Assembly: GCA_964427375.1 (NCBI GenBank)
Contig: CAYRUF010000006.1
Location: 38,892-102,891 of the forward strand
From: an uncultured Desulfatibacillum sp.
Lineage (GTDB): Bacteria > Desulfobacterota > Desulfobacteria > Desulfobacterales > SpSt-501
Direction of reading: 5' to 3'
DNA length: 64,000 bases
Shown here: positions 1,388 to 56,566 of the stretch, piece after piece
Position numbering within the stretch: the first letter of the stretch is position 1
Layout: each line of letters starts with the position of its first letter
Position numbers and translations under genes: made by a program
Notes under the pieces: generated by a model
What the model was told of the DNA's origin: nothing
Seen by the model: only the letters and a program-made list of their open reading frames with translations
Database searches by the model: none

Positions 1388-1786
1388 GTGAGTCAGCGCC
1401 CATGCGTGCAACCGCTCAAAAAAGTTAAAGTTAGGCTGCAGGCCGGCGCGACGGACGCCGTCATGGACATCCCTCTGCCGAGCCCCGATATCGATTTCAT
1501 CTTCGGCATCGGTTCCGGCGGATGGACGCCCTTCGAGCGCCTTCTATCCGACCGCCGCGAAACCGAATCGTTTTCAGGCCATGTGGCCGGCGCGGAAGCA
1601 GGCCTCTTTTTCGGCCATGTGGCCCCTGCCCTCGGCCGCCTGTTTGAAACCCGGGAGACCGTGTTTTTCAAGGCCTGCATCCTCGCCGTCGAGACCCCGC
1701 CGCCGCGCGAGGTCATCAAGGCCATGGCCGACGCAGCGGCCCACGGCCACGAGGGGGGGTGCGACTGCGGCTGCGGCTGCAGCTGA
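1388..1786 (+). CDS. Small SlyD/FKBP-like protein with a C-terminal His/Cys metal-binding tail (tentative)
   Basis: In-frame GTG at 1388 lies 5 nt after GGAGGA (1377-1382). DIDFIFGIGSGGWTPFERLL and VFFKACILAVETPPPREV loosely follow the FKBP/SlyD pattern. The tail is HGHEGGCDCGCGCS. Confidence 0.5.
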   Translation: MSQRPCVQPLKKVKVRLQAGATDAVMDIPLPSPDIDFIFGIGSGGWTPFERLLSDRRETESFSGHVAGAEAGLFFGHVAPALGRLFETRETVFFKACILAVETPPPREVIKAMADAAAHGHEGGCDCGCGCS

Positions 1787-1847
1787 CGGACGCTTTTCGG
1801 AGAATCGCCGGGAACGCCGTTTCGTCCCGGGTTCAAAGGGAGCTACC

Positions 1848-2426
1848 ATGGCAACACCCTGGAAAGTTGAATTCGGCCGCAGGGTCGCAGCGCTCCTGCT
1901 GCTGGGAATGATCGGGGTCTGGACGCATCCGCTCGCGACGGCCGGGGAGCCGGAGCGGTCCTGGGGGCAGACGGTGTATGTGCCGGTCTATTCGCACATC
2001 CTCTACGGCGACCGCGGCGCCGCGTTCAACCTGGCCACGACGCTGGCCATCCGCAACGCCGACCCGGGCCAGTCCCTCTCGGTGATATCGGCGGACTATT
2101 ACGACTCCGGCGGACGCCTCATCCAAAAATACCTCCGCGGGCCGGTGGTGCTGAAACCGCTTGCTTCCACCGAGATTTTCATTCCCGAGAGCGACACCAG
2201 CGGCGGCTTCGGGGCGAGCTTCCTCGTCCGCTGGGCCTCGGCAGAAGCGGTCGTTCCGCCGATCATCGAATGCCTCATGATTGGAGCCCGCTCCGGCCAG
2301 GGCATCTCTTTCGTCAGCCACAGCCGCGTGGTTCAGGAGGCCCCCCCCGGGCAATCTGGGCACAAGGGCCGACCGCCGGCGCCGGCCATCAAGCCTGATA
2401 AACCAGCAACTAGTCATCAAGATTGA
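1848..2426 (+). CDS. DUF3124-like secreted protein
   Basis: ATG at 1848 after AAAGGGAG. Signal-like RRVAALLLLGMIGVWTHPLATA. Conserved-looking QTVYVPVYSHILYG ... TLAIRNAD ... ISADYYDSGGRL ... GGFGASFLVRW. Confidence 0.7.
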   Translation: MATPWKVEFGRRVAALLLLGMIGVWTHPLATAGEPERSWGQTVYVPVYSHILYGDRGAAFNLATTLAIRNADPGQSLSVISADYYDSGGRLIQKYLRGPVVLKPLASTEIFIPESDTSGGFGASFLVRWASAEAVVPPIIECLMIGARSGQGISFVSHSRVVQEAPPGQSGHKGRPPAPAIKPDKPATSHQD

Positions 2427-2523
2427 TGCGCGGGAGTTCGGTGAAACAAGTGTGCGGCGGACCGCTTCGCGCGCGGGAAGTGCTGAATGGGAGCGGGGAG
2501 GATCAGCCAGCGATCCGGCGGCG

Positions 2524-3360
2524 CTAGTTGATCTCGGTCAAGACTTGGTATTTGCGGGCCGCGCTGCGGTGGCGGAAGAGGGTCGCAGGCATTTCAACCG
2601 AACGGAAGCGATCGTCGGTAGCGGTCTGAGGATCGAAAACGCGCAGCACGTAGGGCTGGCGGTGGCTGCCGGTCGCCTCATTCAGCCACCGCGCGGCTTC
2701 GGCGACCTCATCCGGGGTCAGGCAGCGGATGGCCTCCGGGCCCTCTTCCGCCCGCACGACGGGCGCAACCGTGGTCTCGAATCGGTACTCGGGGAACCGG
2801 ACCGCCAGCGCCATGCTGCGCTGGACCTCCTCCGTATCAACCGGTCCTCCGGTCATCGCCGCGTAAAGCGGCCGCGGCCCCTTCAGCTCCATGATCACCC
2901 GGTCGCCCAGCCCTTCGGCAAGCAGCCGCTCCAGAACCGCGGCCTTCCGGCCGTCGGTGTCCAACTGCAGCTTCAGGCCGATCCGCTTCAGAAAGCCCAG
3001 AACCGCGAGCAGGTCCTCCAGCGCGGCCGGCTCGCCCTTCGAGACGTGCAGCCCCCCGACCCAGCCCTTGGAAACCTCGCTGCGGCCGATGAACCCGTCG
3101 AGCCGGTTTGCGGCCTGCAGCCAGGCGATGACGGCCGCGACGCCCTGACGGACCTCGGATCCGTCGGCCAGGATGGGGAATTCTATGCCGTCGGCTCCCC
3201 GAACGATGGCCGCGCGGTGCGTCCGGTAGAATGCCCCGAAGCGCTCCTTCCCCTCCCCGATCGCGTCGTGCTCGTCGAAAACCAGATTCTGCTCGTGCAT
3301 GAATTTCTTGGCGATCCGGCAGCGCGCACAGCCGGTTGCCGTAAAAAGGACCAGACTCAT
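2524..3360 (-). CDS. Glutaredoxin/NrdH-like CxxC domain fused to a radical-SAM-activase-like domain lacking the CX3CX2C cluster
   Basis: ATG at 3360 with GAGGAG RBS, 12 nt after the ASST-like stop. N-terminus MSLVLFTATGCARCRIAKKF (CxxC). C-terminal GGLHVSKGEP...LKLQLDTDGRK resembles the GGE and TNG regions of NrdG/PflA-type activases. Confidence 0.75.
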   Translation of the reverse strand: MSLVLFTATGCARCRIAKKFMHEQNLVFDEHDAIGEGKERFGAFYRTHRAAIVRGADGIEFPILADGSEVRQGVAAVIAWLQAANRLDGFIGRSEVSKGWVGGLHVSKGEPAALEDLLAVLGFLKRIGLKLQLDTDGRKAAVLERLLAEGLGDRVIMELKGPRPLYAAMTGGPVDTEEVQRSMALAVRFPEYRFETTVAPVVRAEEGPEAIRCLTPDEVAEAARWLNEATGSHRQPYVLRVFDPQTATDDRFRSVEMPATLFRHRSAARKYQVLTEIN

Positions 3361-3372
3361 CCGGGCGTCTCC

Positions 3373-4815
3373 TCAACTCGTTTCGACCACATCGGTGCGC
3401 ACGCACAGCGCCGCATCCGGCCGGTACGGCAGGACACCCGCGACGCTCACGGTGCGGCGCGCTCCCGGCGGCGAGGCGCCCGGCACCCGGAAGCGCGTCA
3501 CGTCGATGCGTTCGATCGCCCGTTCGGCCGGTTTTTCGATCTGCGGCACCCATTCGTAAGGCACCCGGTAGGCGCGGTAGATCATGTTGATCTTCAGCAT
3601 CCGGCCCCAATAGGGGCTGATGTACTCCCAGACGATCTCATGGCCGGCGGTGACCTCGATGAGGCGGCCGCCCGAGCCCTCGGTGATCAGGGTGTTCCCG
3701 TTCGGCAGGCGCTGGGCCGAGCTGATGAAGGGGCTGTAGAACCGGTTCGCATCCACCGGGAACGCCAGCCCGGCCTCGACCGGCGTGTACTGCCAGACGA
3801 CCTGCAGCGAGACCGGATCGATTTCGAGCACCCGCGAATAATCGCGCAGTGCGTTCCTGAATCCCGTGGGCGAACCGGGGTTGGGCGCCCCGTAGCCGGC
3901 CCAGCCGCCGTTGTCGAAGACCAGGATGTGGCCCTCGCCGGGAAGCCCGCGCGGAATCATGTGGGCGTGGTGCTGGCCGATGATCCATCCCAGCCGTCGC
4001 AGCTCGGCGGTCTCATCGTAGGTGGGGCCGAGGCGCCAGACGATCCGGCCGGTCTGCTTGTCGACGATGGCCGTGATGTTGGATTCCCGCGCGCACCAGA
4101 TGATGTTGTCCGGGTGGAAGCGCCGGTCGCCCGCGTCGAACCAGCGGTTGGGTCCCAGCAGCGACATGGAGTTGATGTGCATCCAGTCGCCGGCCCCGCC
4201 CCCGGACTTCAGCCAGTTGGGGTTGCGGAACAGGAGGTTCTTGGCGTCCTCCCGGAAGCCGAGCTCGTCGAAATGCTCGCTGCACACCCATTCCCAGATC
4301 ACCTCGCCCTCCCAGTCGACCTCGATGATGCTGTCGTCCAGGAGCGGCTTGTCGCAGATGGCGGGATTCCTCACGTTCTTGTGGGAGAGGATCATGGTGC
4401 GGCCCCGGTCGGTCAGGGGCTCCAGGCCCGGGGCATAGTAGCCCACCGGATTGCCTTCGCGCTGGTAGTCGTGATGCTGCCGGGCCATCCATTGCGGCGC
4501 TTCGCCGGGGTCCTCGATGAACTCGTACTGGTTGAAGCGCCAGACCACGTTGCCGTCCCAGTCCACCTGGACCAGGTCGATCCCGTCCTGGCTGCCGAAG
4601 GCCGTGCTGCGCTCACCGGTGCTGCCGATCAGGTGGCCGCCCGGCAGAATGCGATTGGGCATCCCGTGCAGCTCCTTCCACAGCTGGACTTCGCCGCCGT
4701 TCATGTCGATCAGCAGCGCCCCCACCTCCTTGGCCTGGAACACGGTGTAGCCGTTCCAACACCGGCCGGGGTCGTAGAGCGTCGTTCCGGTGGGAAAGAT
4801 ACTGGGATAGGTCAT
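3373..4815 (-). CDS. Arylsulfotransferase (ASST) family beta-propeller protein, no signal peptide
   Basis: Track ORF 3373-5274 overlaps tctA. The realistic start is ATG 4815 (MTYPSIFPTG) preceded by AGGAGG at 4825-4830. WDGNVVWRF, EGEVIWEW, GRIVWRL, LQVVWQY and GHEIVWEY are repeated propeller blades typical of ASST-like proteins. Confidence 0.8.
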   Translation of the reverse strand: MTYPSIFPTGTTLYDPGRCWNGYTVFQAKEVGALLIDMNGGEVQLWKELHGMPNRILPGGHLIGSTGERSTAFGSQDGIDLVQVDWDGNVVWRFNQYEFIEDPGEAPQWMARQHHDYQREGNPVGYYAPGLEPLTDRGRTMILSHKNVRNPAICDKPLLDDSIIEVDWEGEVIWEWVCSEHFDELGFREDAKNLLFRNPNWLKSGGGAGDWMHINSMSLLGPNRWFDAGDRRFHPDNIIWCARESNITAIVDKQTGRIVWRLGPTYDETAELRRLGWIIGQHHAHMIPRGLPGEGHILVFDNGGWAGYGAPNPGSPTGFRNALRDYSRVLEIDPVSLQVVWQYTPVEAGLAFPVDANRFYSPFISSAQRLPNGNTLITEGSGGRLIEVTAGHEIVWEYISPYWGRMLKINMIYRAYRVPYEWVPQIEKPAERAIERIDVTRFRVPGASPPGARRTVSVAGVLPYRPDAALCVRTDVVETS

Positions 4816-4835
4816 TTGCTGTTGCCTCCTGAATG

Positions 4836-6338
4836 TTAGTCTTCTTTGAATGCCGTCTCCCGCCCGCGGCGGATGCCCGGCAGAGCCACCGCGATCAGCA
4901 TGCCCGCCGCGAGGACGAGGAAGGCCAGCGACAGGGGGCGCGCAACGAACACGGACGGGTCGCCGCGCGAAAGCAGCATGGCCCGCCGCAGGTTTTCCTC
5001 CAGCATCGGGCCCAGGACAAAACCCAGGATGAGCGGGGCCGGCTCGCATTCGAGCTTGTGGAACACGTAGCCGAGCAGCCCGCACAGGGCCGTCAGTCCG
5101 ATGTCGAAGGTGTTGTTGTTCACGCTGTAGAGCCCGATGCAGCAGAACACCAGGATCGCGGGATACAGCAGGCGGTAGGGAACCGAGAGCAGCCGCACCC
5201 AGATCCCCACCAGCGGCAGGTTCAGCACCACCAGGATGATGTTGCCGAGCCACATGGAAACGATGACGCCCCAAAAAAGGGCCGGGTTGCTGGTGATGAC
5301 CCGCGGACCCGGCTGGATGCCGTGGATCATCATGGCGCCGGCCATCATCGCCAGGATCACGTTGGGCGGGATGCCGAGCGTGAGCAGCGGCACGAAGGAG
5401 GTCTGGGCCGCCGCGTTGTTGGCCGATTCGGGGGCGGCCACCCCGCGAATGTCACCCTGGCCGAAGCGCCCCGGGTCGTGCGCGCACTTCTTCTCGATCA
5501 TGTAGGCCGTAAACGATGAGATGATCGCCCCGCCGCCCGGCAGGATCCCCAGAAGCGAGCCGCACAGGGTGCCGCGCAGCACGGCCGGCGCGGCCGCGCG
5601 AAGGTCCTCCTTCTTCAGCCACAGCCCGGTGAGCTGGCTCTTCAGGATGTCGCGCTTCTCGCGCTTTTCGAGGCTGTTGATGATGTCGCAGATGCCGAAA
5701 AGGCCCATGGCCAGGGACACGAATCCGATGCCGTCGGCCAGTTCGGTAATCCCGAACGTGAAGCGGTGCGCGCCGCTGGTGACATCGGTCCCGATCATGC
5801 CCAGCAGCAGCCCGATCGCAATCATGCCGACCGCCTTGAGCATGGACCCGGAGGCCAGCACGACCGAGCCGATCAGACCGAAGACCATGAGCGAGAAGTA
5901 CTCCGCCGGCCCGAACCGGAACGCCAGCTCGGACAGCGGCACCGCCAGAACGGCCAGGACCAGGGTGGCGAAGGAGCCGGCCGCGAACGAGCCCAGGGCC
6001 GAAATGGTCAGCGCCGCGCCGGCCCGCCCCTGCCGCGCCATCTGGTGCCCGTCGAGGCAGGTCACGACCGAGGAGGCCTCGCCCGGCACGTTCACCAAAA
6101 TGGAGGTCGTCGACCCGCCGTACTGGGCGCCGTAGTAGATGCCGGCCAGCATGATCAGCGCCGAGACCGGCGGCAGGGCGAACGTGGTGGGCAGGAGAAT
6201 GGCGATGGTCTGGACCGGGCCGATGCCCGGCAGGACCCCGATGAGGGTGCCGATCAGGGCTCCGACCAGGCAGTATAGAAGATTCATGGGAGTGACGGCA
6301 GTCTGGAATCCGAGCGCCAAATTGGACAGCAGTTCCAT
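4836..6338 (-). CDS. tctA: Tripartite tricarboxylate transporter large permease TctA
   Basis: 500 aa polytopic protein. MELLSNLALGFQTAVTPMNLLYCLVGALIGTLIGVLPGIGPV is a typical TctA N-terminus. Confidence 0.9.
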   Translation of the reverse strand: MELLSNLALGFQTAVTPMNLLYCLVGALIGTLIGVLPGIGPVQTIAILLPTTFALPPVSALIMLAGIYYGAQYGGSTTSILVNVPGEASSVVTCLDGHQMARQGRAGAALTISALGSFAAGSFATLVLAVLAVPLSELAFRFGPAEYFSLMVFGLIGSVVLASGSMLKAVGMIAIGLLLGMIGTDVTSGAHRFTFGITELADGIGFVSLAMGLFGICDIINSLEKREKRDILKSQLTGLWLKKEDLRAAAPAVLRGTLCGSLLGILPGGGAIISSFTAYMIEKKCAHDPGRFGQGDIRGVAAPESANNAAAQTSFVPLLTLGIPPNVILAMMAGAMMIHGIQPGPRVITSNPALFWGVIVSMWLGNIILVVLNLPLVGIWVRLLSVPYRLLYPAILVFCCIGLYSVNNNTFDIGLTALCGLLGYVFHKLECEPAPLILGFVLGPMLEENLRRAMLLSRGDPSVFVARPLSLAFLVLAAGMLIAVALPGIRRGRETAFKED

Positions 6339-6359
6339 GAAACATCCACCCCTGGCCGT

Positions 6360-6827
6360 TCAGAAACGGCCAGCGATAAAGGAGGGCCAGACCGGCAATT
6401 GGAAATCGAGGAAGTAGACGAACACCGCCAGCACGATGCCGGTCAGCGCGGCGGCATTCAGGAGTGCTTCCTTCCAGCGAAATTCATGGCTGGCCCGGCT
6501 GGCGAGAACGACGAGGGCGGCGGTCGACAGCAGCAGTCCCAGTGGTTTCAGGATCTGGCTGAAAAGCACCACCGAAACGAGGATGATCGCCACGGGCTTG
6601 AGCTGCAGAGCCGGCCACCGGGAGGATTCCTGGCGCCCTGCGACCCCTCTCAGCAGGATCAGGCCGCCGAGCACGACTAAAAACCCGCCGAGCACGAGCG
6701 GGAAATACCCCGGCCCCATTTTGGCGGCGCTGCCGATCGTCAGGCCGAACGACAGGACCATGGCCGCCGCGCCGAAAAAAACGAACATCACGCCGGTCAG
6801 GAAATCCTTCGGATGCCGGATGCGCAT
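6360..6827 (-). CDS. tctB: Tripartite tricarboxylate transporter small permease TctB
   Basis: 155 aa four-TM protein 21 nt upstream of tctA, at the usual TctB position and size. Confidence 0.8.
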   Translation of the reverse strand: MRIRHPKDFLTGVMFVFFGAAAMVLSFGLTIGSAAKMGPGYFPLVLGGFLVVLGGLILLRGVAGRQESSRWPALQLKPVAIILVSVVLFSQILKPLGLLLSTAALVVLASRASHEFRWKEALLNAAALTGIVLAVFVYFLDFQLPVWPSFIAGRF

Positions 6828-6898
6828 GGAAAATCCTTTTCGGTTCTTATCATTGACATCCGTTCATCGCCCTCTGTTGGAATGGCGCAGGGATGCCT

Positions 6899-7115
6899 GG
6901 AGGGGGGCTGCGCCTCGCAGGAGCCGCCGCAATTTTTCCGGCAGCGGTCTCAACGGCAGCAATCCCGCTCAGATACGCCCAGAAAGCCCCAAACCGAAGC
7001 GCCCCACGACGGAGGCTGCCGTCACTGCCAGTGCGGAGCCATCCTAAAAGTTATCGGGGCGTGACGAAGCCTCGGCGTCTTTTGCGGCGGCCCCTGCGAG
7101 GCGCAGCCCCCCTCC
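6899..7115. repeat. 217-bp element bounded by 32-bp terminal inverted repeats (31/32 match), inside the tctC-tctB spacer
   Basis: GGAGGGGGGCTGCGCCTCGCAGGAGCCGCCGC at 6899-6930. Its reverse complement lies at 7084-7115 with one mismatch. Confidence 0.7.
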
Positions 7116-7164
7116 GGGTCTTCTTTATCAATGAGCAAATCGCTCGATTTCGGACGAAGCCAAT

Positions 7165-8127
7165 CTATTCGGCCTTGAACCCGGACGCCTGGATGATCGG
7201 CACCCAGCGCTCGCGGTCCTTCTTGAAAACGGCGCCGCATTCCTCCGGCGTGGTTCCGGCCGGATCGCTGCCCATCCCCTTGATCTTCTCAACGACGTCC
7301 GCTGACTGCACCGCCTTGACAACGGCCGCGCTCAGCTTGTCGATGACGGGTTTGGGAGTCTTGGCCGGCACGACGAGAGCGTTCCAGCCCACTCCCTCGA
7401 TCTCCGGAAAGCCCGCTTCCTTGAAGGTGGGGATGTCCGGCTGCTTGCGCGAAGTTCCGGCCGTGGCCAGGATGCGGATCTTGTCCGGATGGTAGGCCGA
7501 CTGGGCATCATAGGCATCGACGCCGATCGGAATCTGGTTGCCGATCAAGGCGGTCACCAGCGGACCCGACCCGTTGTAGGAGGAATGCACCATCTCGACC
7601 CCCGCCGCCTTGCCGATCATGAGGCCGAAAAAATGCGGCAAGCTGCCGGCGGCCGGAGATCCGTAGTTGGCCTGGTTCGGGTTTTTCTGGATCCATTCGA
7701 TCAGGCCTTTGACGTCCTTGATCGGCGAGGCCGGCGGCACCGAGGCGCAGAACTGGTAGACCTGGATGAGAGACACCGGTGCGAAGTCGGCATCCGGGTC
7801 GTAGGCCAGCTTGGAGAACACCACCGGCGCCACGACGAACAGGGCCGGGTTCACCAGCAGCAGCGTGGTGCCGTCCGCCGGCTGGCCCTTGGCGTACTCC
7901 GTACCGATGCGCCCGCCGGCGCCGGGCTTGTTTTCCACAATCACCGTCTGGCCGAGGGAATCCTTCAGCTTGTCCGCGATGAGCCGGGCCACCACATCCG
8001 AGCCGCCACCCGCCGGGTACGGCACGACGATCTTGATGGGGCCTTTGATTTCCTGGGCGGATAGCATGCCCCCTCCGCCAAGAACGACCATCATGGCCAC
8101 CAGCACCCCGATGCAGCATCTACGCAT
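7165..8127 (-). CDS. tctC: Tripartite tricarboxylate transporter substrate-binding protein TctC (Bug family)
   Basis: ATG 8127 after AGGAGG. Signal peptide, then IKIVVPYPAGGGSDVVARLIADKL, a typical Bug/TctC motif. Confidence 0.9.
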   Translation of the reverse strand: MRRCCIGVLVAMMVVLGGGGMLSAQEIKGPIKIVVPYPAGGGSDVVARLIADKLKDSLGQTVIVENKPGAGGRIGTEYAKGQPADGTTLLLVNPALFVVAPVVFSKLAYDPDADFAPVSLIQVYQFCASVPPASPIKDVKGLIEWIQKNPNQANYGSPAAGSLPHFFGLMIGKAAGVEMVHSSYNGSGPLVTALIGNQIPIGVDAYDAQSAYHPDKIRILATAGTSRKQPDIPTFKEAGFPEIEGVGWNALVVPAKTPKPVIDKLSAAVVKAVQSADVVEKIKGMGSDPAGTTPEECGAVFKKDRERWVPIIQASGFKAE

Positions 8128-8154
8128 GGCGAAACCTCCTTTGGGTAAGGGTTC

Positions 8155-8183
8155 TTGACTCTCGTTTGGACTAACGTTATACA
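8155..8183 (+). promoter_or_regulatory. Candidate sigma70 promoter for the GntR gene (TTGACT-17-TATACA) overlapping a GTTAT-N4-ATAAC palindrome
   Basis: TTGACT at 8155-8160, TATACA at 8178-8183. The palindrome GTTATACAGATAAC at about 8176-8189 is a possible GntR operator. Confidence 0.3.
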
Positions 8184-8273
8184 GATAACCGATAGCGTGT
8201 CAAGCGCATTTGCCGGCCGGCGGCCGATTCGGTCGTTGCGAATCTCGTCCTTCGGTCGGCGCAGGTTACCGTT

Positions 8274-9035
8274 ATGGTCTTCATGCCCGTCAAGCAGAAC
8301 CGCATCGCGGTCGAAATCGTCAGCCAGCTCAAGGCGGCGATCCTCTCCGGCCGGTTCAAGCCCGGCGAGCGCCTGCCCACCGAACGGGAACTGACCGAAC
8401 AGTTCCAGGTCAGCCGGGTGGTGGTCCGGGAAGCGGTCCGGGAGCTTGAAATCAAGGGGCTGGTCAAAATTCTGCAGGGCCCCACCGGCGGCGCCTATGT
8501 GACCGATCTGTCCCTGGACCACCTCAACAGCGCCTTCCTGGATCTTTTTCTCTACAATCGGGTGTCGGTGGCGGAGCTGATCGCCGCCCGCCGGTTGGTC
8601 GAGTGCGAAATCGCCCGAATCGCCGCGGCGCGCATCGAAGACCGGGGCGCCCGGCGGCTGCAGGAGGCCCTCGACGTCGAACAGCACGACAGCCCGTCGC
8701 ATGCCGAGTTCGTCTCCAACCGCTTGAAGTTTCATTATCTCCTGGCCGAACTGAGCGGCAACCGGCTGCTGCAGGCCATCGCCGGCGCGCTGTTTCGGCT
8801 GACGGGCGACGTGATCCTGGAGGTCAAGCCGGTCAGGCAAGTGATCCATCGGCCGAAGGAACATGCCGAGATCCTGGCCGCCATTCTGGATCACGACGGC
8901 CGGGCCGCCGCCCAAGCCATGCAGCGCCACCTGGAGAACATGGGCCGGCAGTTGACCCGGCTGGAGGGAATCTATCGCCGGCGAAGGGGGCTGGCAGACG
9001 ACTCCGGTCTATCCGGACGGGGAGGCGCTCAATGA
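8274..9035 (+). CDS. GntR-family transcriptional regulator with FCD (FadR C-terminal) domain
   Basis: N-terminal wHTH ERLPTERELTEQFQVSRVVVREAVRELEIKGLV followed by a helical FCD-like C-terminus. Divergent from tctC. Confidence 0.9.
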   Translation: MVFMPVKQNRIAVEIVSQLKAAILSGRFKPGERLPTERELTEQFQVSRVVVREAVRELEIKGLVKILQGPTGGAYVTDLSLDHLNSAFLDLFLYNRVSVAELIAARRLVECEIARIAAARIEDRGARRLQEALDVEQHDSPSHAEFVSNRLKFHYLLAELSGNRLLQAIAGALFRLTGDVILEVKPVRQVIHRPKEHAEILAAILDHDGRAAAQAMQRHLENMGRQLTRLEGIYRRRRGLADDSGLSGRGGAQ

Positions 9036-9523
9036 CCTCGATTGAATGCATCGGCTCGGCGCCGATCCGACGCGTCCTGCAATTCAGGATCAAGCCCGGA
9101 TCGGACCTGCTGCAGGCCATCGCGGAGGGGATTCAGGCGGAAGGGGTGCAGGCCGGGGTTTTTGTCTCCGGCCTGGGGGCCCTGCGAAAGGCGATTTTCC
9201 GCAACCTGAGGGTGTTTCCGGAAAAATTTCCGGTGCACCCGGAGGACCGCCTCTACCTGGAAATCACGGCGCCCATGGAGCTCGTGTCCTTGACGGGATG
9301 GATCGCCCCCCGCCTCGACGGGGGCACGGAGATCCATGCCCACTTCGCCGCCTCCACGGTCCAAGACGAGACCGTGGTCACGTTCGGAGGGCATCTCACG
9401 GAGGGCACCATCTGCGGCATCAAGGTGGTGGTCGCGATGCTGGTGGTCGAATCGGATCAGGCCCAGGCGGCTATGGAACCCTATTCCAAATCCCTGGATC
9501 TCTTTTTGGGTTCAACCCGCTGA
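9032..9523 (+). CDS. PPC/DUF296 domain protein
   Basis: ATG 9032 overlaps the GntR stop (ATGA). RRVLQFRIKPGSDLLQAIAEGIQAEGVQAGVFVSGLGAL...HAHFAAS fits the DUF296 pattern. Confidence 0.7.
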   Translation: MTSIECIGSAPIRRVLQFRIKPGSDLLQAIAEGIQAEGVQAGVFVSGLGALRKAIFRNLRVFPEKFPVHPEDRLYLEITAPMELVSLTGWIAPRLDGGTEIHAHFAASTVQDETVVTFGGHLTEGTICGIKVVVAMLVVESDQAQAAMEPYSKSLDLFLGSTR

Positions 9524-9547: not shown

Positions 9548-10444
9548 ATGTTAAGGCAACGGTGGAAGATCTTCACATGGGCGGGGGCCATCCTGTGGTT
9601 TCTCACTTCACAGCCGTCGTCGGCCTGCACCCTGTGGGGAGCTTCCGGAACGGCGGTAGAGGGCGGGGGCACCCTGGTCGCCAAAAACCGCGACTGGAGC
9701 CCGGATCACCACCAGGAACTGGTCGTCCTGAAGCCAACGCAGGGATACCGGGCGCTTCTTCTGAAAGCGGTCGGCGGTGCCGAGCCCGGCGTCAAAGCCG
9801 GCGTGAACGAAAAAGGCCTCGTCATCGTCAGCGCCACGGCCAGCCAGGTTGACGGTCGGCAGCGGACAGCGAATCGACAGAAAAGAGATTTGATGAGCCA
9901 TTTTTTATCTGCCTGCGCCGACATCGATGAGCTTCTCGGTAAGATCGAGCTGCTGCGCCGCCCGGTGTTCTATTTAGTTGGCGACCGTAACCAGATCGCG
10001 CTGATCGAAGTTGCGCCTGACGGCCGCCGTTCGGTCCGCCGTCAAGCCGCCGGCACGCTGCACCACACGAACCATTATTGCGCCTTCGATCCGCCCCCCG
10101 ACCCCAAACGGAAAATCGGCACCAGCAGCACGCAGCGCTCTGCCCGCATCGGTGAACTGCTGAAAGACTCTCCGGCCCCGTTTACGATGGATGATTTTAT
10201 CCGTTTCAGCACGGACGAGGTCGCCGGGCCCGACAACAGCATTTGGCGAACCGGAAGCGGCCCTTCCCATAAGCGCACCCTGGCCACCTGGCTCGTATCG
10301 GTTCCGACCGGCGGCAGCCCGCAGCTTTATCTCAAGACCGCCGACCCCGGTGAACCCGAGCGGGTTTGCCGGATTTCCATCGAGGCCGCCCTCGGCGGGG
10401 ACGACCGTGACCGAATCCCGCTGGACAGCGAGCTCTGCCGATGA
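9548..10444 (+). CDS. Secreted Ntn-hydrolase, C45 peptidase / acyl-CoA:6-APA acyltransferase-like family
   Basis: The signal peptide ends SSA|CTLWG, placing Cys at the mature N-terminus. LVAKNRDW is typical of the C45/choloylglycine hydrolase superfamily. Confidence 0.7.
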   Translation: MLRQRWKIFTWAGAILWFLTSQPSSACTLWGASGTAVEGGGTLVAKNRDWSPDHHQELVVLKPTQGYRALLLKAVGGAEPGVKAGVNEKGLVIVSATASQVDGRQRTANRQKRDLMSHFLSACADIDELLGKIELLRRPVFYLVGDRNQIALIEVAPDGRRSVRRQAAGTLHHTNHYCAFDPPPDPKRKIGTSSTQRSARIGELLKDSPAPFTMDDFIRFSTDEVAGPDNSIWRTGSGPSHKRTLATWLVSVPTGGSPQLYLKTADPGEPERVCRISIEAALGGDDRDRIPLDSELCR

Positions 10445-11001
10445 TCGACGTCTGGGACGGTTCCATCACCTTTCGATCTGCGGATGCATCCGACCGCGCG
10501 GCCATTGCCGCCTTCCACGCCGCCAGCTGGCGCCGCGCCTATCGCGGCATATTGTCCGACTCGTTTCTGGATGGAGCGATCGACGCCGAGCGGCTGGAAC
10601 TGTGGACCAAACGCCTGTCGCCGTCCGGCAGCCACCGCCGCCTCGTCCTGCTGGCCGAAGAGCTTCGCGGTCTGGCCGGGTTCGTGTGCGTCCTGCTGGA
10701 CGAGGAGCCCGAATGGGGGGCCTGCCTGGACAATCTGCATGTGCGGCCCGACAGCCACAGACAGGGGCTGGGCCGGAGGCTCTTCGCCGAAGCCGCGCGC
10801 TGGCTGACGTCGGTCGAGCCGGGCTGGCCGCTCCACCTCTGGGTGTTCGAAACCAACCGGGCCGCCCGGGGATTTTACGATCGGTTCGGCGGTGAGGTGG
10901 TGACCCGCAGGATCAAGTGCATGCCCGGCGGAGGGGATATCGCCTCGCTGCGCTATTTCTGGCGCGATGTGGAAATGCTGATCAAGCGTCTGACGGGCTG
11001 A
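10441..11001 (+). CDS. GNAT-family N-acetyltransferase
   Basis: ATGA overlap with the upstream gene. NLHVRPDSHRQGLGRRLFAEAARWL is acetyl-CoA-binding motif A (Q/RxxGxG/A). Confidence 0.85.
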   Translation: MIDVWDGSITFRSADASDRAAIAAFHAASWRRAYRGILSDSFLDGAIDAERLELWTKRLSPSGSHRRLVLLAEELRGLAGFVCVLLDEEPEWGACLDNLHVRPDSHRQGLGRRLFAEAARWLTSVEPGWPLHLWVFETNRAARGFYDRFGGEVVTRRIKCMPGGGDIASLRYFWRDVEMLIKRLTG

Positions 11002-12075: not shown

Positions 12076-13659
12076 ATGACGTTCACCTGGGACTTTCCCT
12101 ATCCTTCTCGAAGAATGCCGATCCTGGCGCGCAACGCGGTGGCCACCTCTCAGCCCCTGGCCGCGCAGGCCGGGCTGCGCATGCTGCTCGCCGGCGGCAA
12201 CGCCGTGGACGCGGCCCTGGCGGCCGCCATCGCGCTCACGGTGGTCGAGCCGACCAGCAACGGCATCGGCAGCGACGCCTTTGCCATCCTCTGGGACGGA
12301 AGCGCCCTGCACGGCCTGAACAGCTCCGGCCGGGCGCCGCAGGCCTGGTCGCCGCAGCGCTTCGCCGGCCTGTCCGCGATGCCGCCTTTGGGCTGGGACA
12401 CCGTTACGGTGCCCGGCGCCGTCGCCGCCTGGGCGGCTCTGTCCGAGCGCTTCGGCAAGCTTTCGTTCGCGGAGTTGTTCCAGCCGGCCATCGCCTATGC
12501 GCGCGACGGCTTCCCGGTATCGCCGATCACGGCCCGGCGCTGGCAGCAGGCCCAGGCGCTTTACCCGCAGTTTGCCGAGATCAACCGCACCTTTTTCCCG
12601 GCCGGCCGGGCCCCGCAGCCCGGAGAGCGGTTCCGCTGTCCGGACCAGGCCGATGCTCTGGCCGAGATCGCGGCCAGCCGCGGCGAATCATTCTACCGCG
12701 GGCCGCTCGCCCGCCGGATGGCGGCCTGCGCGGCGGCCGAGGGCGGCGCCCTGACGCTGGACGATCTGGCCCAGCACACCGCGGACTGGGTCGAACCGCT
12801 GGCCGTCGACTACCGCGGAGCCATGCTGCATGAAATCCCGCCGAACGGCCAGGGGATCGCGGCCCTCATCGCGCTGGGGATCTTGCGGCATTTCGACCTC
12901 GGGCGGTTTCCGGTCGATTCGGTGGACAGCATCCACCTGCAGATTGAAGCCATGAAAGCGGCCTTCACCGACGTGTTCCGCGAAGTGGCCGACCTCGATC
13001 ACATGCGGCGGCCGCCCGGCGACCTGCTGCGCGCCGACGCCCTGGCGGCCCGGGCCGCCGCGATCCGCATGGACGCCGCCGCCGAGCCACCCGGCCCATC
13101 GCCGTCCGGCGGCGGCACGGTCTTCCTGACCGCCGCCGACGAATCCGGCATGATGGTCTCTTTCATCCAATCCAACTACATGGGGTTCGGCTCCGGCGTA
13201 GTGGTGCCGGGCACCGGCATGGCCCTGCAGAACCGCGGCCTGGGGTTCGTCCTGGAGGACGGTCACCCCAACCGCGTGGCCGGCGGCAAGCGACCGTTCC
13301 ACACCATCATCCCGGGGTTCGTCACGCGGGGCGGCCGGCCGCTCATGAGCTTCGGCGTCATGGGCGCTCACATGCAGCCCCAGGGGCACGTGCAGATGAT
13401 GACCCGGATTTTCGACTACGGCCAGAACCCCCAGGCCGCCTGCGATGCGCCGCGCTGGCATGTGTCCGCCGACGGCAGTGTGCAGCTCGAGGCCGGTGTG
13501 GCACCGGCGGTGGCGGAGGGGCTTCGCCGGCGCGGGCATTCGGTGACCACCGACGCACCCGAATCGCTCTTCGGCGGCGGGCAGCTGATCTGGCGGCTCC
13601 CCGACGGCTACGCGGCGGCTTCGGACCGGCGCAAGGACGGACAGGCCGTCGGCTTTTGA
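12076..13659 (+). CDS. ggt: Gamma-glutamyltransferase family protein (no obvious signal peptide)
   Basis: RNAVATSQPLAAQAGLRMLLAGGNAVDAALAAAIALTVVEPTSNGIGSD. The probable autoprocessing site is GGGTVFLTAAD. Confidence 0.88.
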   Translation: MTFTWDFPYPSRRMPILARNAVATSQPLAAQAGLRMLLAGGNAVDAALAAAIALTVVEPTSNGIGSDAFAILWDGSALHGLNSSGRAPQAWSPQRFAGLSAMPPLGWDTVTVPGAVAAWAALSERFGKLSFAELFQPAIAYARDGFPVSPITARRWQQAQALYPQFAEINRTFFPAGRAPQPGERFRCPDQADALAEIAASRGESFYRGPLARRMAACAAAEGGALTLDDLAQHTADWVEPLAVDYRGAMLHEIPPNGQGIAALIALGILRHFDLGRFPVDSVDSIHLQIEAMKAAFTDVFREVADLDHMRRPPGDLLRADALAARAAAIRMDAAAEPPGPSPSGGGTVFLTAADESGMMVSFIQSNYMGFGSGVVVPGTGMALQNRGLGFVLEDGHPNRVAGGKRPFHTIIPGFVTRGGRPLMSFGVMGAHMQPQGHVQMMTRIFDYGQNPQAACDAPRWHVSADGSVQLEAGVAPAVAEGLRRRGHSVTTDAPESLFGGGQLIWRLPDGYAAASDRRKDGQAVGF

Positions 13660-55033: not shown

Positions 55034-56566
55034 TTAACGCCGCCATGCCATCAATCGAGAAAAAATCTTCTTGGCAAAAGGCGTGAGACGCGTGCGATTG
55101 AAAGCATCGCCGACCTGGCGCACGGCTTCGGCCTGCGTCGGATACGGATGAATGGCGGCGGCGATGTTTTTGAGCCCCAGCCCGTTCGTCATCGCCAGGG
55201 TGATCTCGGATATCATGTCCCCGGCGTTTTGGGCCACGATCGTGGCCCCGGCGATCTGATCGCTGCCCTTGCGCACATGCACGCGGACAAAGCCCTTGGT
55301 TCGGCCTTCGAGGATAGCTCGGTCCACCTCGGATAGCTCCCGCGTGAAGGTATCCAGCGCGACCCCCTGCTCCTCGGCCTGTTTCGGATAGAGCCCGACA
55401 TGGGCAATTTCCGGCTCCGTGTAGGTGCACCATGGAATCGTCAATGCGCTGGCCTTGGCGCGGCCGAAAAAAAGCGCGTTTCGGATCACGGTGCGCGCCA
55501 TGACATCGGCGGCATGCGTGAATTGATAGGGCGAGCAGATGTCGCCGGCCGCGTAAATGTCGGGCTGCGTCGTCTGAAGCTGATCATTTACCTGAACGCC
55601 CTTCTTGGAATACGCCACCCCGGCCGCTTCCAGCCCCAATCGCTCCACGTTCGGGGAGCGTCCGACGGCGACCAGGAGCTTGTCCACGACCTCGTCGTAG
55701 TTTTTCGAGTGAGATTCCACCGACAGGCGCACCCGTCCCCCATCCGCCTTGGACAGCTTCAGTTCCTGGCCGCAGCAAAGGAGCCTGACACCGTCTTTGA
55801 GCAGAGACCCCAAGACGATCTCGGAGGCATCAGAGTCCTCGCGCGGCAGGATGCCATGGGTGGCCTCGACCAGGAACACTTCAGCGCCGAAGCGGGCAAA
55901 GCTCTGGGCCATCTCGCAGCCGATGGGCCCGGCGCCGATCACGGCCAGGCGCTTGGGCAGCCCCGTCAAGGAGAAGAGGGTTTCGTTGGTCAGGTATTCC
56001 ACCTCGCCCAGCCCCGGAATGGGCGGGGCCGAGGCCCGGGCGCCGGTGGCGATGACGGCTTTCTTGAAGCGGAGCTTCTCCCCCGCAACCTCAATGGTAT
56101 GGGAATCCACAAACCGTCCGTTGCCGATGAAGACATCGACCCCCAGTCGGCTGAACCGCTTGGCGGAGTCGTTCGGGGCGATGGACGCCCGCAGCCGACG
56201 CATACGCTCCATGACGTGGCCGAAATCGACCTGCACCCCCTCCGGCACTCGAACTCCGAACTCGGCTGCATCCCGCACGGCCGCCGCCGCCCGCGCCGCT
56301 GCGATCAGCGCCTTCGAGGGAACGCAGCCGACGTTGAGACAGTCCCCTCCCATCAGATGGCGTTCGACCAGCGCCACTTTTGCACCTAATCCGGCCGCAC
56401 CGGCTGCACTGACCAGCCCGGCGGTCCCGGCTCCGATCACGACCAGATTGTAGCGCTCAGCGGGCTTCGGGTTGGTCCAATCGAACGGGTGGACCAGGGA
56501 GGCCAAGTTCCGGTTGTGTTCATCCCATGGGCGAACAATCGGGATCCCATTATTATTTTCCGACAT
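55034..56566 (-). CDS. Class I pyridine nucleotide-disulfide oxidoreductase (mercuric reductase / dihydrolipoamide dehydrogenase-like)
   Basis: Start MSENNNG at 56566 after AAGGAG. VVIGAGTAGL, redox disulfide GGDCLNVGCVPSK, C-terminal dimerisation domain. Confidence 0.9.
   Translation of the reverse strand: MSENNNGIPIVRPWDEHNRNLASLVHPFDWTNPKPAERYNLVVIGAGTAGLVSAAGAAGLGAKVALVERHLMGGDCLNVGCVPSKALIAAARAAAAVRDAAEFGVRVPEGVQVDFGHVMERMRRLRASIAPNDSAKRFSRLGVDVFIGNGRFVDSHTIEVAGEKLRFKKAVIATGARASAPPIPGLGEVEYLTNETLFSLTGLPKRLAVIGAGPIGCEMAQSFARFGAEVFLVEATHGILPREDSDASEIVLGSLLKDGVRLLCCGQELKLSKADGGRVRLSVESHSKNYDEVVDKLLVAVGRSPNVERLGLEAAGVAYSKKGVQVNDQLQTTQPDIYAAGDICSPYQFTHAADVMARTVIRNALFFGRAKASALTIPWCTYTEPEIAHVGLYPKQAEEQGVALDTFTRELSEVDRAILEGRTKGFVRVHVRKGSDQIAGATIVAQNAGDMISEITLAMTNGLGLKNIAAAIHPYPTQAEAVRQVGDAFNRTRLTPFAKKIFSRLMAWRR

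Follow-up and report, generated by a model that had tools for sequence, protein, structure and literature searches.

A leaderless ASST-family propeller encoded with a redoxin partner and an anion importer in Desulfobacterota and Bacillota

Organization of the locus

Biocatalysis has for decades made use of aryl sulfotransferases (ASTs) that work independently of 3'-phosphoadenosine 5'-phosphosulfate (PAPS). What ASTs do physiologically was still described as unknown in a 2026 review (PMC13426309). The locus considered here occupies positions 2,524 to 9,035 of a stretch of 64,000 nucleotides (the window) from an uncultured Desulfatibacillum sp. (GenBank assembly GCA_964427375.1, contig CAYRUF010000006.1) and encodes an importer of the tripartite tricarboxylate transporter (TTT) type, a leaderless propeller protein of the aryl-sulfate sulfotransferase (ASST) family and a partner protein with a CxxC motif. 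It exemplifies a large clade of thousands of sequences in two phyla, whose genomic context offers a testable answer regarding function, namely a cytoplasmic reaction coupled to import and dependent on a dedicated dithiol relay. The features of the locus are as follows.

8274–9035, plus strand: gene for a GntR/FCD-family regulator (Pfam GntR, E 1.5e-19; FCD, E 9e-19)
8153–8204, minus strand: candidate tctC promoter/operator (from the letters and a block conserved across 10 orthologous loci)
7165–8127, minus strand: tctC, periplasmic binding protein of the TTT importer (Pfam TctC, E 4e-51; N-terminal signal peptide)
6360–6827, minus strand: tctB, small membrane subunit (Pfam TctB, E 2e-18)
4836–6338, minus strand: tctA, large membrane subunit (Pfam TctA, E 3e-159)
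3373–4815, minus strand: ASST-like gene, leaderless beta-propeller of 480 aa (Pfam PF05935 and PF14269, both above cut-off)
2524–3360, minus strand: partner gene (CxxC fusion, protein 'G') of 278 aa (weak Pfam Glutaredoxin and Radical_SAM matches; NCBIfam NrdG2, E 4e-13)

An earlier note on this DNA had placed tctC, tctB, tctA, the ASST-like gene and the CxxC fusion gene in this order on the minus strand, with spacings of 21 nt (tctB–tctA), 20 nt (tctA–ASST-like gene) and 12 nt (ASST-like gene–CxxC gene) and with a divergent GntR/FCD gene 146 bp from tctC, and each of these coordinates was recovered as described. The ribosome-binding site that it assigned to the ASST-like gene is likewise present, AGGAGG lying at 4830–4825 and preceding the ATG (4815–4813) by 9 nt. 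The spacing between tctC and tctB is 337 nt (6828–7164) and contains an inverted-repeat element. The TTT importer is complete, since TctA, TctB and the exported TctC are encoded together and matched by their Pfam models, and the regulator possesses both an N-terminal GntR winged helix and a C-terminal FCD domain, each above the Pfam threshold. A search of positions 2300–9200 against Rfam gave no match, and no canonical intrinsic terminator follows the last gene of the operon, where a GC-rich palindrome (2465–2480) stands alone.

Family, fold and predicted active site of the propeller

The predicted product of the ASST-like gene matches PF05935 with 71.7 bits (cut-off 24.2) and PF14269 with 54.3 bits (cut-off 27); NCBIfam has no model for this protein or for TctC. 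Searching the single sequence against PDB sequences gave no match and a profile was needed, which was built from 40 members of the ASST-like family and retrieved Cpz4, an AST-type sulfotransferase from Streptomyces, with an E-value of 1.5e-8, followed by the E. coli ASST with 1.5e-3. The AlphaFold2 (AF2) model of the protein has a predicted local distance difference test score (pLDDT) of 91.3 and a predicted TM-score of 0.90, and is disordered only at residues 1–3 and 469–480, the latter with pLDDT below 50. Foldseek returned Cpz4 first (E 5e-17) and the E. coli ASST next (E 1e-11), at TM-scores of only about 0.5 and with 16–21% identity between the ASST-like protein and characterised ASTs. 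The protein, which the earlier note had assigned to the ASST family, is indeed a member of it by Pfam, fold and active-site residues, the profile-to-PDB search agreeing with the Pfam matches and the fold.

In the E. coli enzyme (EcAST), the catalytic and sulfuryl-binding residues are His436, His252, His356, Asn358 and Arg374 (PMC13426309). In the profile alignment to 3elq, His282 of the motif GQ-H-HAHM aligns with the sulfo-histidine nucleophile His436, R243 aligns with Arg374, and H213 and N215 (WMHINS) align with His356 and Asn358 (WAHVNS), part of the His356 motif having been matched by eye, while the counterpart of His252 is an HHD motif at 114–116 (H114/H115). Because the mapped columns are invariant or nearly so in the family alignments, the sulfuryl-transfer machinery of the propeller appears, and is predicted, to be intact.

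Retention of the full ASST active-site constellation would suit an ordinary PAPS-independent sulfotransferase that works in the cytoplasm and moves -SO3 between an imported compound and a phenol or alcohol of the cytoplasm, in the manner of Cpz4 in the caprazamycin pathway, in which case the redoxin, together with the GcvH and Lpd proteins encoded at related loci, would merely keep cysteines reduced or serve regulation. That the closest solved structure, Cpz4, is an AST-type transferase of a biosynthetic pathway also favours such an assignment. We consider it unlikely on account of the cysteines and the gene neighbourhoods described below.

A leaderless clade and its cysteines

The highest 12-residue Kyte–Doolittle mean at the N-terminus of the ASST-like protein is 1.30, compared with 3.05 at the hydrophobic N-terminus of TctC. 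The four in-frame starts upstream of the ATG all lie within tctA and add no hydrophobic segment, and hence the absence of a leader, proposed in the earlier note, holds by hydropathy for the alternative starts as well. A search for homologues returned more than 6,450 matches, the best 120 of which are 71–91% identical, 476–489 aa long and derived from Desulfobacterota and from Bacillota such as Desulforamulus, Desulfotomaculum and Moorella; within this cytoplasmic clade, the identity between Desulfobacterota and Bacillota is 68–75%. The hosts are overwhelmingly Desulfobacterota and Desulfotomaculia/Peptococcaceae, in addition to Neomoorella sulfitireducens and some clostridia. All close homologues begin with M-[TS]-Y-P-S at the same position, whereas representatives at 40–50% identity mostly carry hydrophobic leaders of 22–30 residues, some of them resembling signals for twin-arginine translocation (Tat), and a hydrophobic N-terminus is found in 52 of the 76 family representatives of at least 400 aa. 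Since the clade shares its start and these more distant relatives possess leaders, the leaderless state is a property of the subfamily and not an annotation artefact.

In the wider family (P0248 and others), exported paralogues with Sec- or Tat-like leaders are numerous, and there are multidomain ASST-like forms with Lcl_C or MopE-like copper-binding motifs.

Two cysteines distinguish the clade. Cys471 is invariant, both in the 79 genome-locus sequences and in the 120 cluster representatives, and is situated on a C-terminal tail of about 40 residues that belongs to the clade, in the part of the model with pLDDT below 50. Cys178 is clade-specific and present in 92% of the members. In a 40-sequence alignment, the exported relatives lack Cys178 and most of them lack the tail. 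Moreover, two representatives of 50%-identity clusters (P0244 and P0245) join an ASST-like domain to a C-terminal thioredoxin domain (PF00085, E 2e-14 and 1e-11, respectively). If the cysteines and the redox proteins had a housekeeping role only, as the ordinary-transferase explanation would have it, there would be no explanation for a tail cysteine that is invariant in the cytoplasmic clade and found nowhere else.

The partner protein: a redoxin fused to a cluster-less barrel

The earlier note had called the last gene of the operon a Grx fusion. Its CxxC redoxin domain is confirmed; however, the protein is not a simple Grx fusion, as the redoxin is joined to a barrel of the radical S-adenosylmethionine (SAM) type that lacks the cluster. 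Residues 1 to about 90 form an NrdH/glutaredoxin-like domain with an invariant G10-C11-x-R13-C14 and a cis-proline at Pro62, with a Pfam Glutaredoxin score below the threshold (17.7 against 22.9). Residues from about 97 to 278 form a half barrel of the radical-SAM-activase type without Fe-S cysteines. The AF2 model (pLDDT 93.5) accordingly displays an N-terminal thioredoxin fold and a C-terminal alpha/beta half barrel, for which Foldseek retrieved NrdH (1h75, TMt 0.69) and Grx in the first case and the pyruvate formate-lyase activating enzyme (PFL-AE), DesII and BioB in the second.

Automatic annotation names the protein 'pyruvate formate lyase activating enzyme'. The NCBIfam NrdG2 match covers only profile positions 59–172, past the cluster-binding loop, and the Pfam and NCBIfam radical SAM matches are similarly restricted to the profile section after this loop. 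In alignments of 44 and of 28 family members, the CxxxCxxC motif for a 4Fe-4S cluster is absent from the C-terminal domain and the only conserved cysteines are Cys11 and Cys14; the other invariant residues are F61-P62, R54, R265 and R269. At the site of the GGE motif for SAM binding, the family is freely variable, with 'SKGEP' in the window protein. The partner is therefore not a radical SAM enzyme, because the cluster cysteines are absent and the GGE position is unconserved, and a radical SAM activase acting on the propeller was rejected owing to the missing cluster cysteines. Selenocysteine at the CxxC motif, raised by a weak Uxx-star match, was also discarded, since Cys occupies both sites in 98% of the 44 aligned members. 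When a profile was used to look for more remote relatives of the redoxin fusion, nothing beyond the same family of about 280 aa was retrieved.

The partner is most likely a cytoplasmic redoxin, predicted to reduce a catalytic or tail cysteine of the ASST-like enzyme. It is notable by itself, its radical-SAM-activase barrel having shed the Fe-S cluster and acquired a glutaredoxin domain.

Gene neighbourhoods in other genomes

A scan of one genome per species gave at least 600 stretches that matched the pattern, at least 563 of them encoding ASST-like relatives, and the best 80 loci were analysed; these are the top-scoring ones and thus biased to close relatives, and their open reading frames (ORFs) are simple longest-ORF calls. 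ORF clustering and operon walking revealed a recurring architecture, in which a regulator and an anion importer accompany the ASST-like and partner genes. A redoxin gene is located within 3 kb of the ASST-like gene in 49 of the 80 loci, and in 32 of the 52 loci that have at least 3 kb of flanking sequence on both sides. Conversely, when three redoxin homologues (45–49% identity) were taken as starting points, each was seen to adjoin or cluster with an ASST-like gene, one of them being situated between two ASST-like paralogues. The gene order is hence conserved in relatives well past this genome, the module is widespread among anaerobes that reduce sulfate or sulfite, and the ASST-like enzyme is tied genetically to a CxxC redoxin in a link that looks obligate.

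The regulators across the loci are of the GntR, Crp, IclR or LysR type or sigma-54 activators, and the importers include TTT, TRAP and DASS carriers, ATP-binding cassette (ABC) systems of the Ssu/NMT1 type, MFS and NhaC. The TTT importers themselves come from at least two lineages, in which TctA is either 82–96% or about 33% identical. Thus, of the earlier suggestion that an anion importer is paired with the enzyme, the pairing is conserved, but TTT is just one of several interchangeable importers.

Operons of Bacillota in some cases also carry GcvH, Lpd, LipB, LipA or LplA, with an order GcvH–redoxin–ASST-like–Lpd–LipB–LipA, and the Bacillota module includes a complete lipoyl-protein reducing system. 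In Desulforamulus ruminis, GcvH and a homologue of the partner (46% identical) precede the ASST-like gene, Lpd follows it, and a LysR gene is divergent; both GcvH and Lpd of this locus pass the NCBIfam equivalog cut-offs. No further enzyme was found to recur, the Pfam scan of 41 of the 59 leftover, non-recurrent ORFs giving singletons or pairs. Near the D. ruminis copy, at a distance of about 6 kb, there is a small NIR_SIR gene; as it recurs in only one of the 80 loci, a link to sulfite reductase was dropped.

These neighbourhoods are difficult to reconcile with an ordinary transferase, which accounts neither for a dedicated redoxin family with the enzyme at each redoxin-homologue locus examined nor for the thioredoxin fusion and the GcvH, Lpd, LipA and LipB genes in the operon. 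Such a transferase would also lack a recurrent second gene to make or use its donor or acceptor. In strict anaerobes, moreover, the cytoplasm is reducing, and there would be little need for a private thiol-reducing system.

The same evidence bears on another explanation, in which the ASST scaffold has been co-opted for another reaction, one that depends on thiols and acts on an anion bound by the histidines and the arginine, such as the reduction or cleavage of a disulfide, sulfoxide, thiosulfonate or sulfonate, or of a conjugate of a selenium or arsenic oxyanion. The CxxC redoxin, lipoyl-GcvH, Lpd and fused thioredoxin would indicate a two-electron thiol-disulfide reaction and leave its substrate unspecified; the importers include DASS carriers and Ssu-like ABC systems typical of sulfonates; and the identity to characterised ASTs is low, as given above. 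However, the nucleophilic histidine and all of the mapped residues for sulfuryl binding show little or no variation throughout the family, even in exported clades that have no redox partner, which is most simply explained by conserved sulfuryl chemistry, and the C-S cleavage of unactivated sulfonates would be chemically implausible for this active site. Recruitment to another reaction is, therefore, judged improbable.

Paired ASST-like paralogues, located side by side or in neighbouring operons, were observed in L087 (JGI 3300083231, 4176–8312) and in L054, L057, L080 and L085; each paralogue of a pair has its own importer, with one redoxin gene common to both, which suggests that different substrates are served by one redox partner. 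An ArAE_1 aromatic-acid exporter and an LplA-B_cat lipoate-protein ligase occur once each in ASST-like operons, and EamA exporters occur twice; the exporter matches would fit the release of a desulfated aromatic acid and are too rare to carry weight.

Proposed reaction

We propose, with a probability of roughly 0.38, that the two proteins form a cytoplasmic unit that processes a small organic anion imported by the TTT system through sulfuryl transfer followed by dithiol-driven release of sulfite. In this mechanism, the -SO3 group of an imported sulfate ester (or S-sulfonate) would be transferred onto His282 and then passed to the thiol of Cys178 or Cys471, generating an S-sulfocysteine, which the CxxC motif of the redoxin or dihydrolipoyl-GcvH would resolve to sulfite and a disulfide. 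The disulfide would be reduced again by NADH via Lpd and lipoyl-GcvH, or by general thiol systems in Desulfobacterota, resulting in the net reaction R-O-SO3- + 2[H] -> R-OH + HSO3-. The logic would be that of PAPS/APS (adenosine 5'-phosphosulfate) reductase with thioredoxin, set on an ASST scaffold, and the sulfite could enter dissimilatory or assimilatory sulfite reduction with no ATP spent on activating sulfate. The release of sulfite would explain why no further pathway genes are needed, and it agrees with a host range made up mostly of Desulfobacterota and Desulfotomaculia.

Several observations weigh against sulfite release. In 20 of the 52 fully flanked loci, the redoxin gene is missing from the 3 kb on either side, a count that speaks for an ordinary transferase, and within 10 kb there is no recurrent gene for a sulfite reductase, a sulfite exporter or another protein of sulfur metabolism. 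The mapping of the EcAST residues comes from a weak profile alignment (E 1.5e-3). The binding proteins of TTT and TRAP systems usually take carboxylates, which constrains the substrate without naming it. The conserved cysteines and the redoxin could serve regulation or protection instead of catalysis, and the proposal does not explain the cluster-less barrel of the radical SAM type. Finally, a literature search found no published biochemistry on the cytoplasmic ASST-like clade and no paper on the clade or its redoxin/GcvH context; the description of the locus in the earlier note as an uncharacterised uptake-plus-modification module is thus a fair one.

The same parts and intermediates could also serve the reverse reaction, a sulfite-dependent sulfation in which sulfitolysis of the oxidised redoxin or of a lipoyl disulfide would yield an S-sulfonate, from which -SO3 would be passed to an imported hydroxyl compound for the purpose of sulfite detoxification or of PAPS-free synthesis of sulfate esters, and sulfite reducers do make sulfite internally. 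However, importers that depend on binding proteins (TTT, TRAP, ABC) together with a repressor resemble a catabolic or respiratory uptake module, no product exporter is recurrent, and sulfation driven by NAD+ is estimated to be thermodynamically unattractive, which renders this direction very improbable.

If sulfite is released, sulfidogenic bacteria of sediments, wetlands and guts would have, besides sulfonates, organic sulfate esters from which to obtain respiratory sulfite directly. It is possible, if doubtful, that the enzyme acts as a 'sulfate-ester reductase' that converts imported organosulfates directly to sulfite via sulfo-histidine and S-sulfocysteine, providing anaerobes that reduce sulfate or sulfite with an ATP-free entry to dissimilatory sulfite reduction, and clostridia with a means of assimilating sulfur anaerobically. 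Were this true, the 'sulfate-ester reductase' would establish a new class of reaction and add a link to the sulfur cycle of sediments and the gut.

Comparison with known systems

The ASTs of Klebsiella (K-36) and E. coli (CFT073) carry a signal peptide and are periplasmic (PMC13426309). AssT of E. coli CFT073, encoded with DsbL/DsbI (3ELQ, 3ETS), resembles the window protein in its Pfam family, six-bladed propeller, catalytic residues and thiol-disulfide operon partner, whereas only AssT is periplasmic and possesses a signal peptide, an N-terminal beta-sandwich and a structural disulfide made by DsbL/DsbI. The window protein has neither leader nor sandwich, and instead carries the clade-specific tail cysteine and is encoded with a cytoplasmic redoxin-fusion partner that is presumably reducing. 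It is also shorter (480 aa compared with 571), the alignment beginning at about EcAST residue 232 with a structure-based identity of 16–18%. The DsbL/DsbI-style pairing drawn in the earlier note therefore stands insofar as a thiol-disulfide partner is present in the operon, but the likeness is superficial, since DsbL/DsbI oxidise a structural disulfide in the periplasm. What is new here is an import-coupled cytoplasmic variant of the ASST family without the periplasmic location, the Dsb-dependent disulfide and the sandwich domain.

Cpz4 of caprazamycin biosynthesis (9KF4, 9KF6) is the best profile and fold match, and is similar in being a single propeller of about 470 aa that is not known to be periplasmic. 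It differs in that it belongs to an antibiotic gene cluster and sulfates a glycoside; the identity is about 20%, and the tail with Cys471 has no counterpart in the aligned region of Cpz4. To our knowledge, no redoxin, GcvH/Lpd or importer has been described with Cpz4.

PAPS/APS reductase (CysH) with thioredoxin or glutaredoxin is alike in the proposed logic only and not in family. In PAPS reductase, an S-sulfocysteine forms on a flexible C-terminal Cys and is resolved by thioredoxin to sulfite and a disulfide. Unlike the beta-propeller, CysH has an ATP-pyrophosphatase-like fold, uses a nucleotide donor and has no histidine intermediate.

The Bacillota module resembles, in its Lpd, lipoyl carrier, CxxC protein and terminal enzyme, the Lpd–DlaT(SucB)–AhpD–AhpC system of Mycobacterium tuberculosis, a relay that runs from NADH through Lpd, a lipoyl carrier and a CxxC protein to the terminal enzyme. 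The sHdr-LbpA system of sulfur oxidisers is similar in that dedicated lipoylation genes are found within a sulfur-metabolism cluster. However, the terminal enzymes of these lipoyl-relay systems are a peroxiredoxin or a heterodisulfide-reductase-like complex, with no homology to the ASST-like protein or the redoxin fusion. Lastly, the PflA/NrdG activases resemble the C-terminal 180 residues of the partner, which match the NrdG2 profile (59–172) and the PFL-AE fold, whereas their CxxxCxxC cluster loop is replaced in the partner by the glutaredoxin-like domain.

Candidate promoter and operator, and the tctC–tctB element

The candidate tctC promoter consists of a -35 box TTGACA (8203–8198), a 16-nt spacer and a -10 box TATAAC (8181–8176), and was overlooked by a consensus scanner because the -10 ends in C. 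The -10 box is overlapped by a palindrome, TAACGTTA, at 8179–8172, and the promoter block is flanked by inverted hexamers, CTTGAC (8204–8199) and GTCAAG (8159–8154). In an alignment of 10 orthologous loci, the block CTTGACA...TGTATAACGTTAGTCCAAA...GAGTCAAG of the gntR–tctC intergenic region is kept while the remainder diverges. This layout would fit a GntR-type repressor whose predicted binding occludes the promoter, and the GntR/FCD repressor probably sits on the conserved operator that overlaps the tctC -10. The operon is predicted to be substrate-inducible. A GntR gene is located within 6 kb in many related loci, one ORF cluster of GntR genes spanning 29 of the 80.

The element between tctC and tctB (6896–7118, 223 nt) is bounded by 37-nt inverted repeats (6896–6932 and 7082–7118) that are 95% complementary, and as an operon-strand RNA it is predicted to fold with -150 kcal/mol (z = -7.9). 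The tctC–tctB spacing is about 200 nt shorter in orthologous loci, and no further copy of the element was found in the window or the 80 related loci, nor did it match Rfam. It could be an insertion resembling a miniature inverted-repeat transposable element, or else a stem by which the expression of tctC is kept separate from that of the genes downstream.

Substrate clues and flanking genes

The closest solved relatives of TctC are BugE, a terephthalate-binding protein, Bug27 and AdpC, with glutamate, terephthalate, adipate or nicotinate as ligands, and are uninformative with respect to the ligand. Nor do the Crp-type regulators at the Bacillota loci point to a ligand, resembling E. coli CRP and the phenol-sensing CprK to the same degree.

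Downstream of the regulator, a PCC-domain gene (9032–9523, plus strand) overlaps the gntR stop by 4 nt and is followed by genes for a C45/AAT Ntn-hydrolase with a signal peptide (9548–10444, plus strand) and a GNAT acetyltransferase (10441–11001, plus strand). In close relatives, PCC and MR/MLE (enolase-superfamily) genes recur beside gntR, and M20 peptidase genes recur in other loci. The genes after gntR may point to a substrate of the N-acyl or peptide type, or may belong to an unrelated regulon. A gamma-glutamyltranspeptidase gene (12076–13659, plus strand) lies 3 kb past the regulator, and on the other side a DUF3124 gene (1581–2426, plus strand) converges on the end of the operon. A homologue of dihydrolipoyl dehydrogenase (55106–56452, minus strand), about 50 kb away and 37% identical to the Lpd encoded in the operon of D. 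ruminis, may provide the present genome with its reducing relay.

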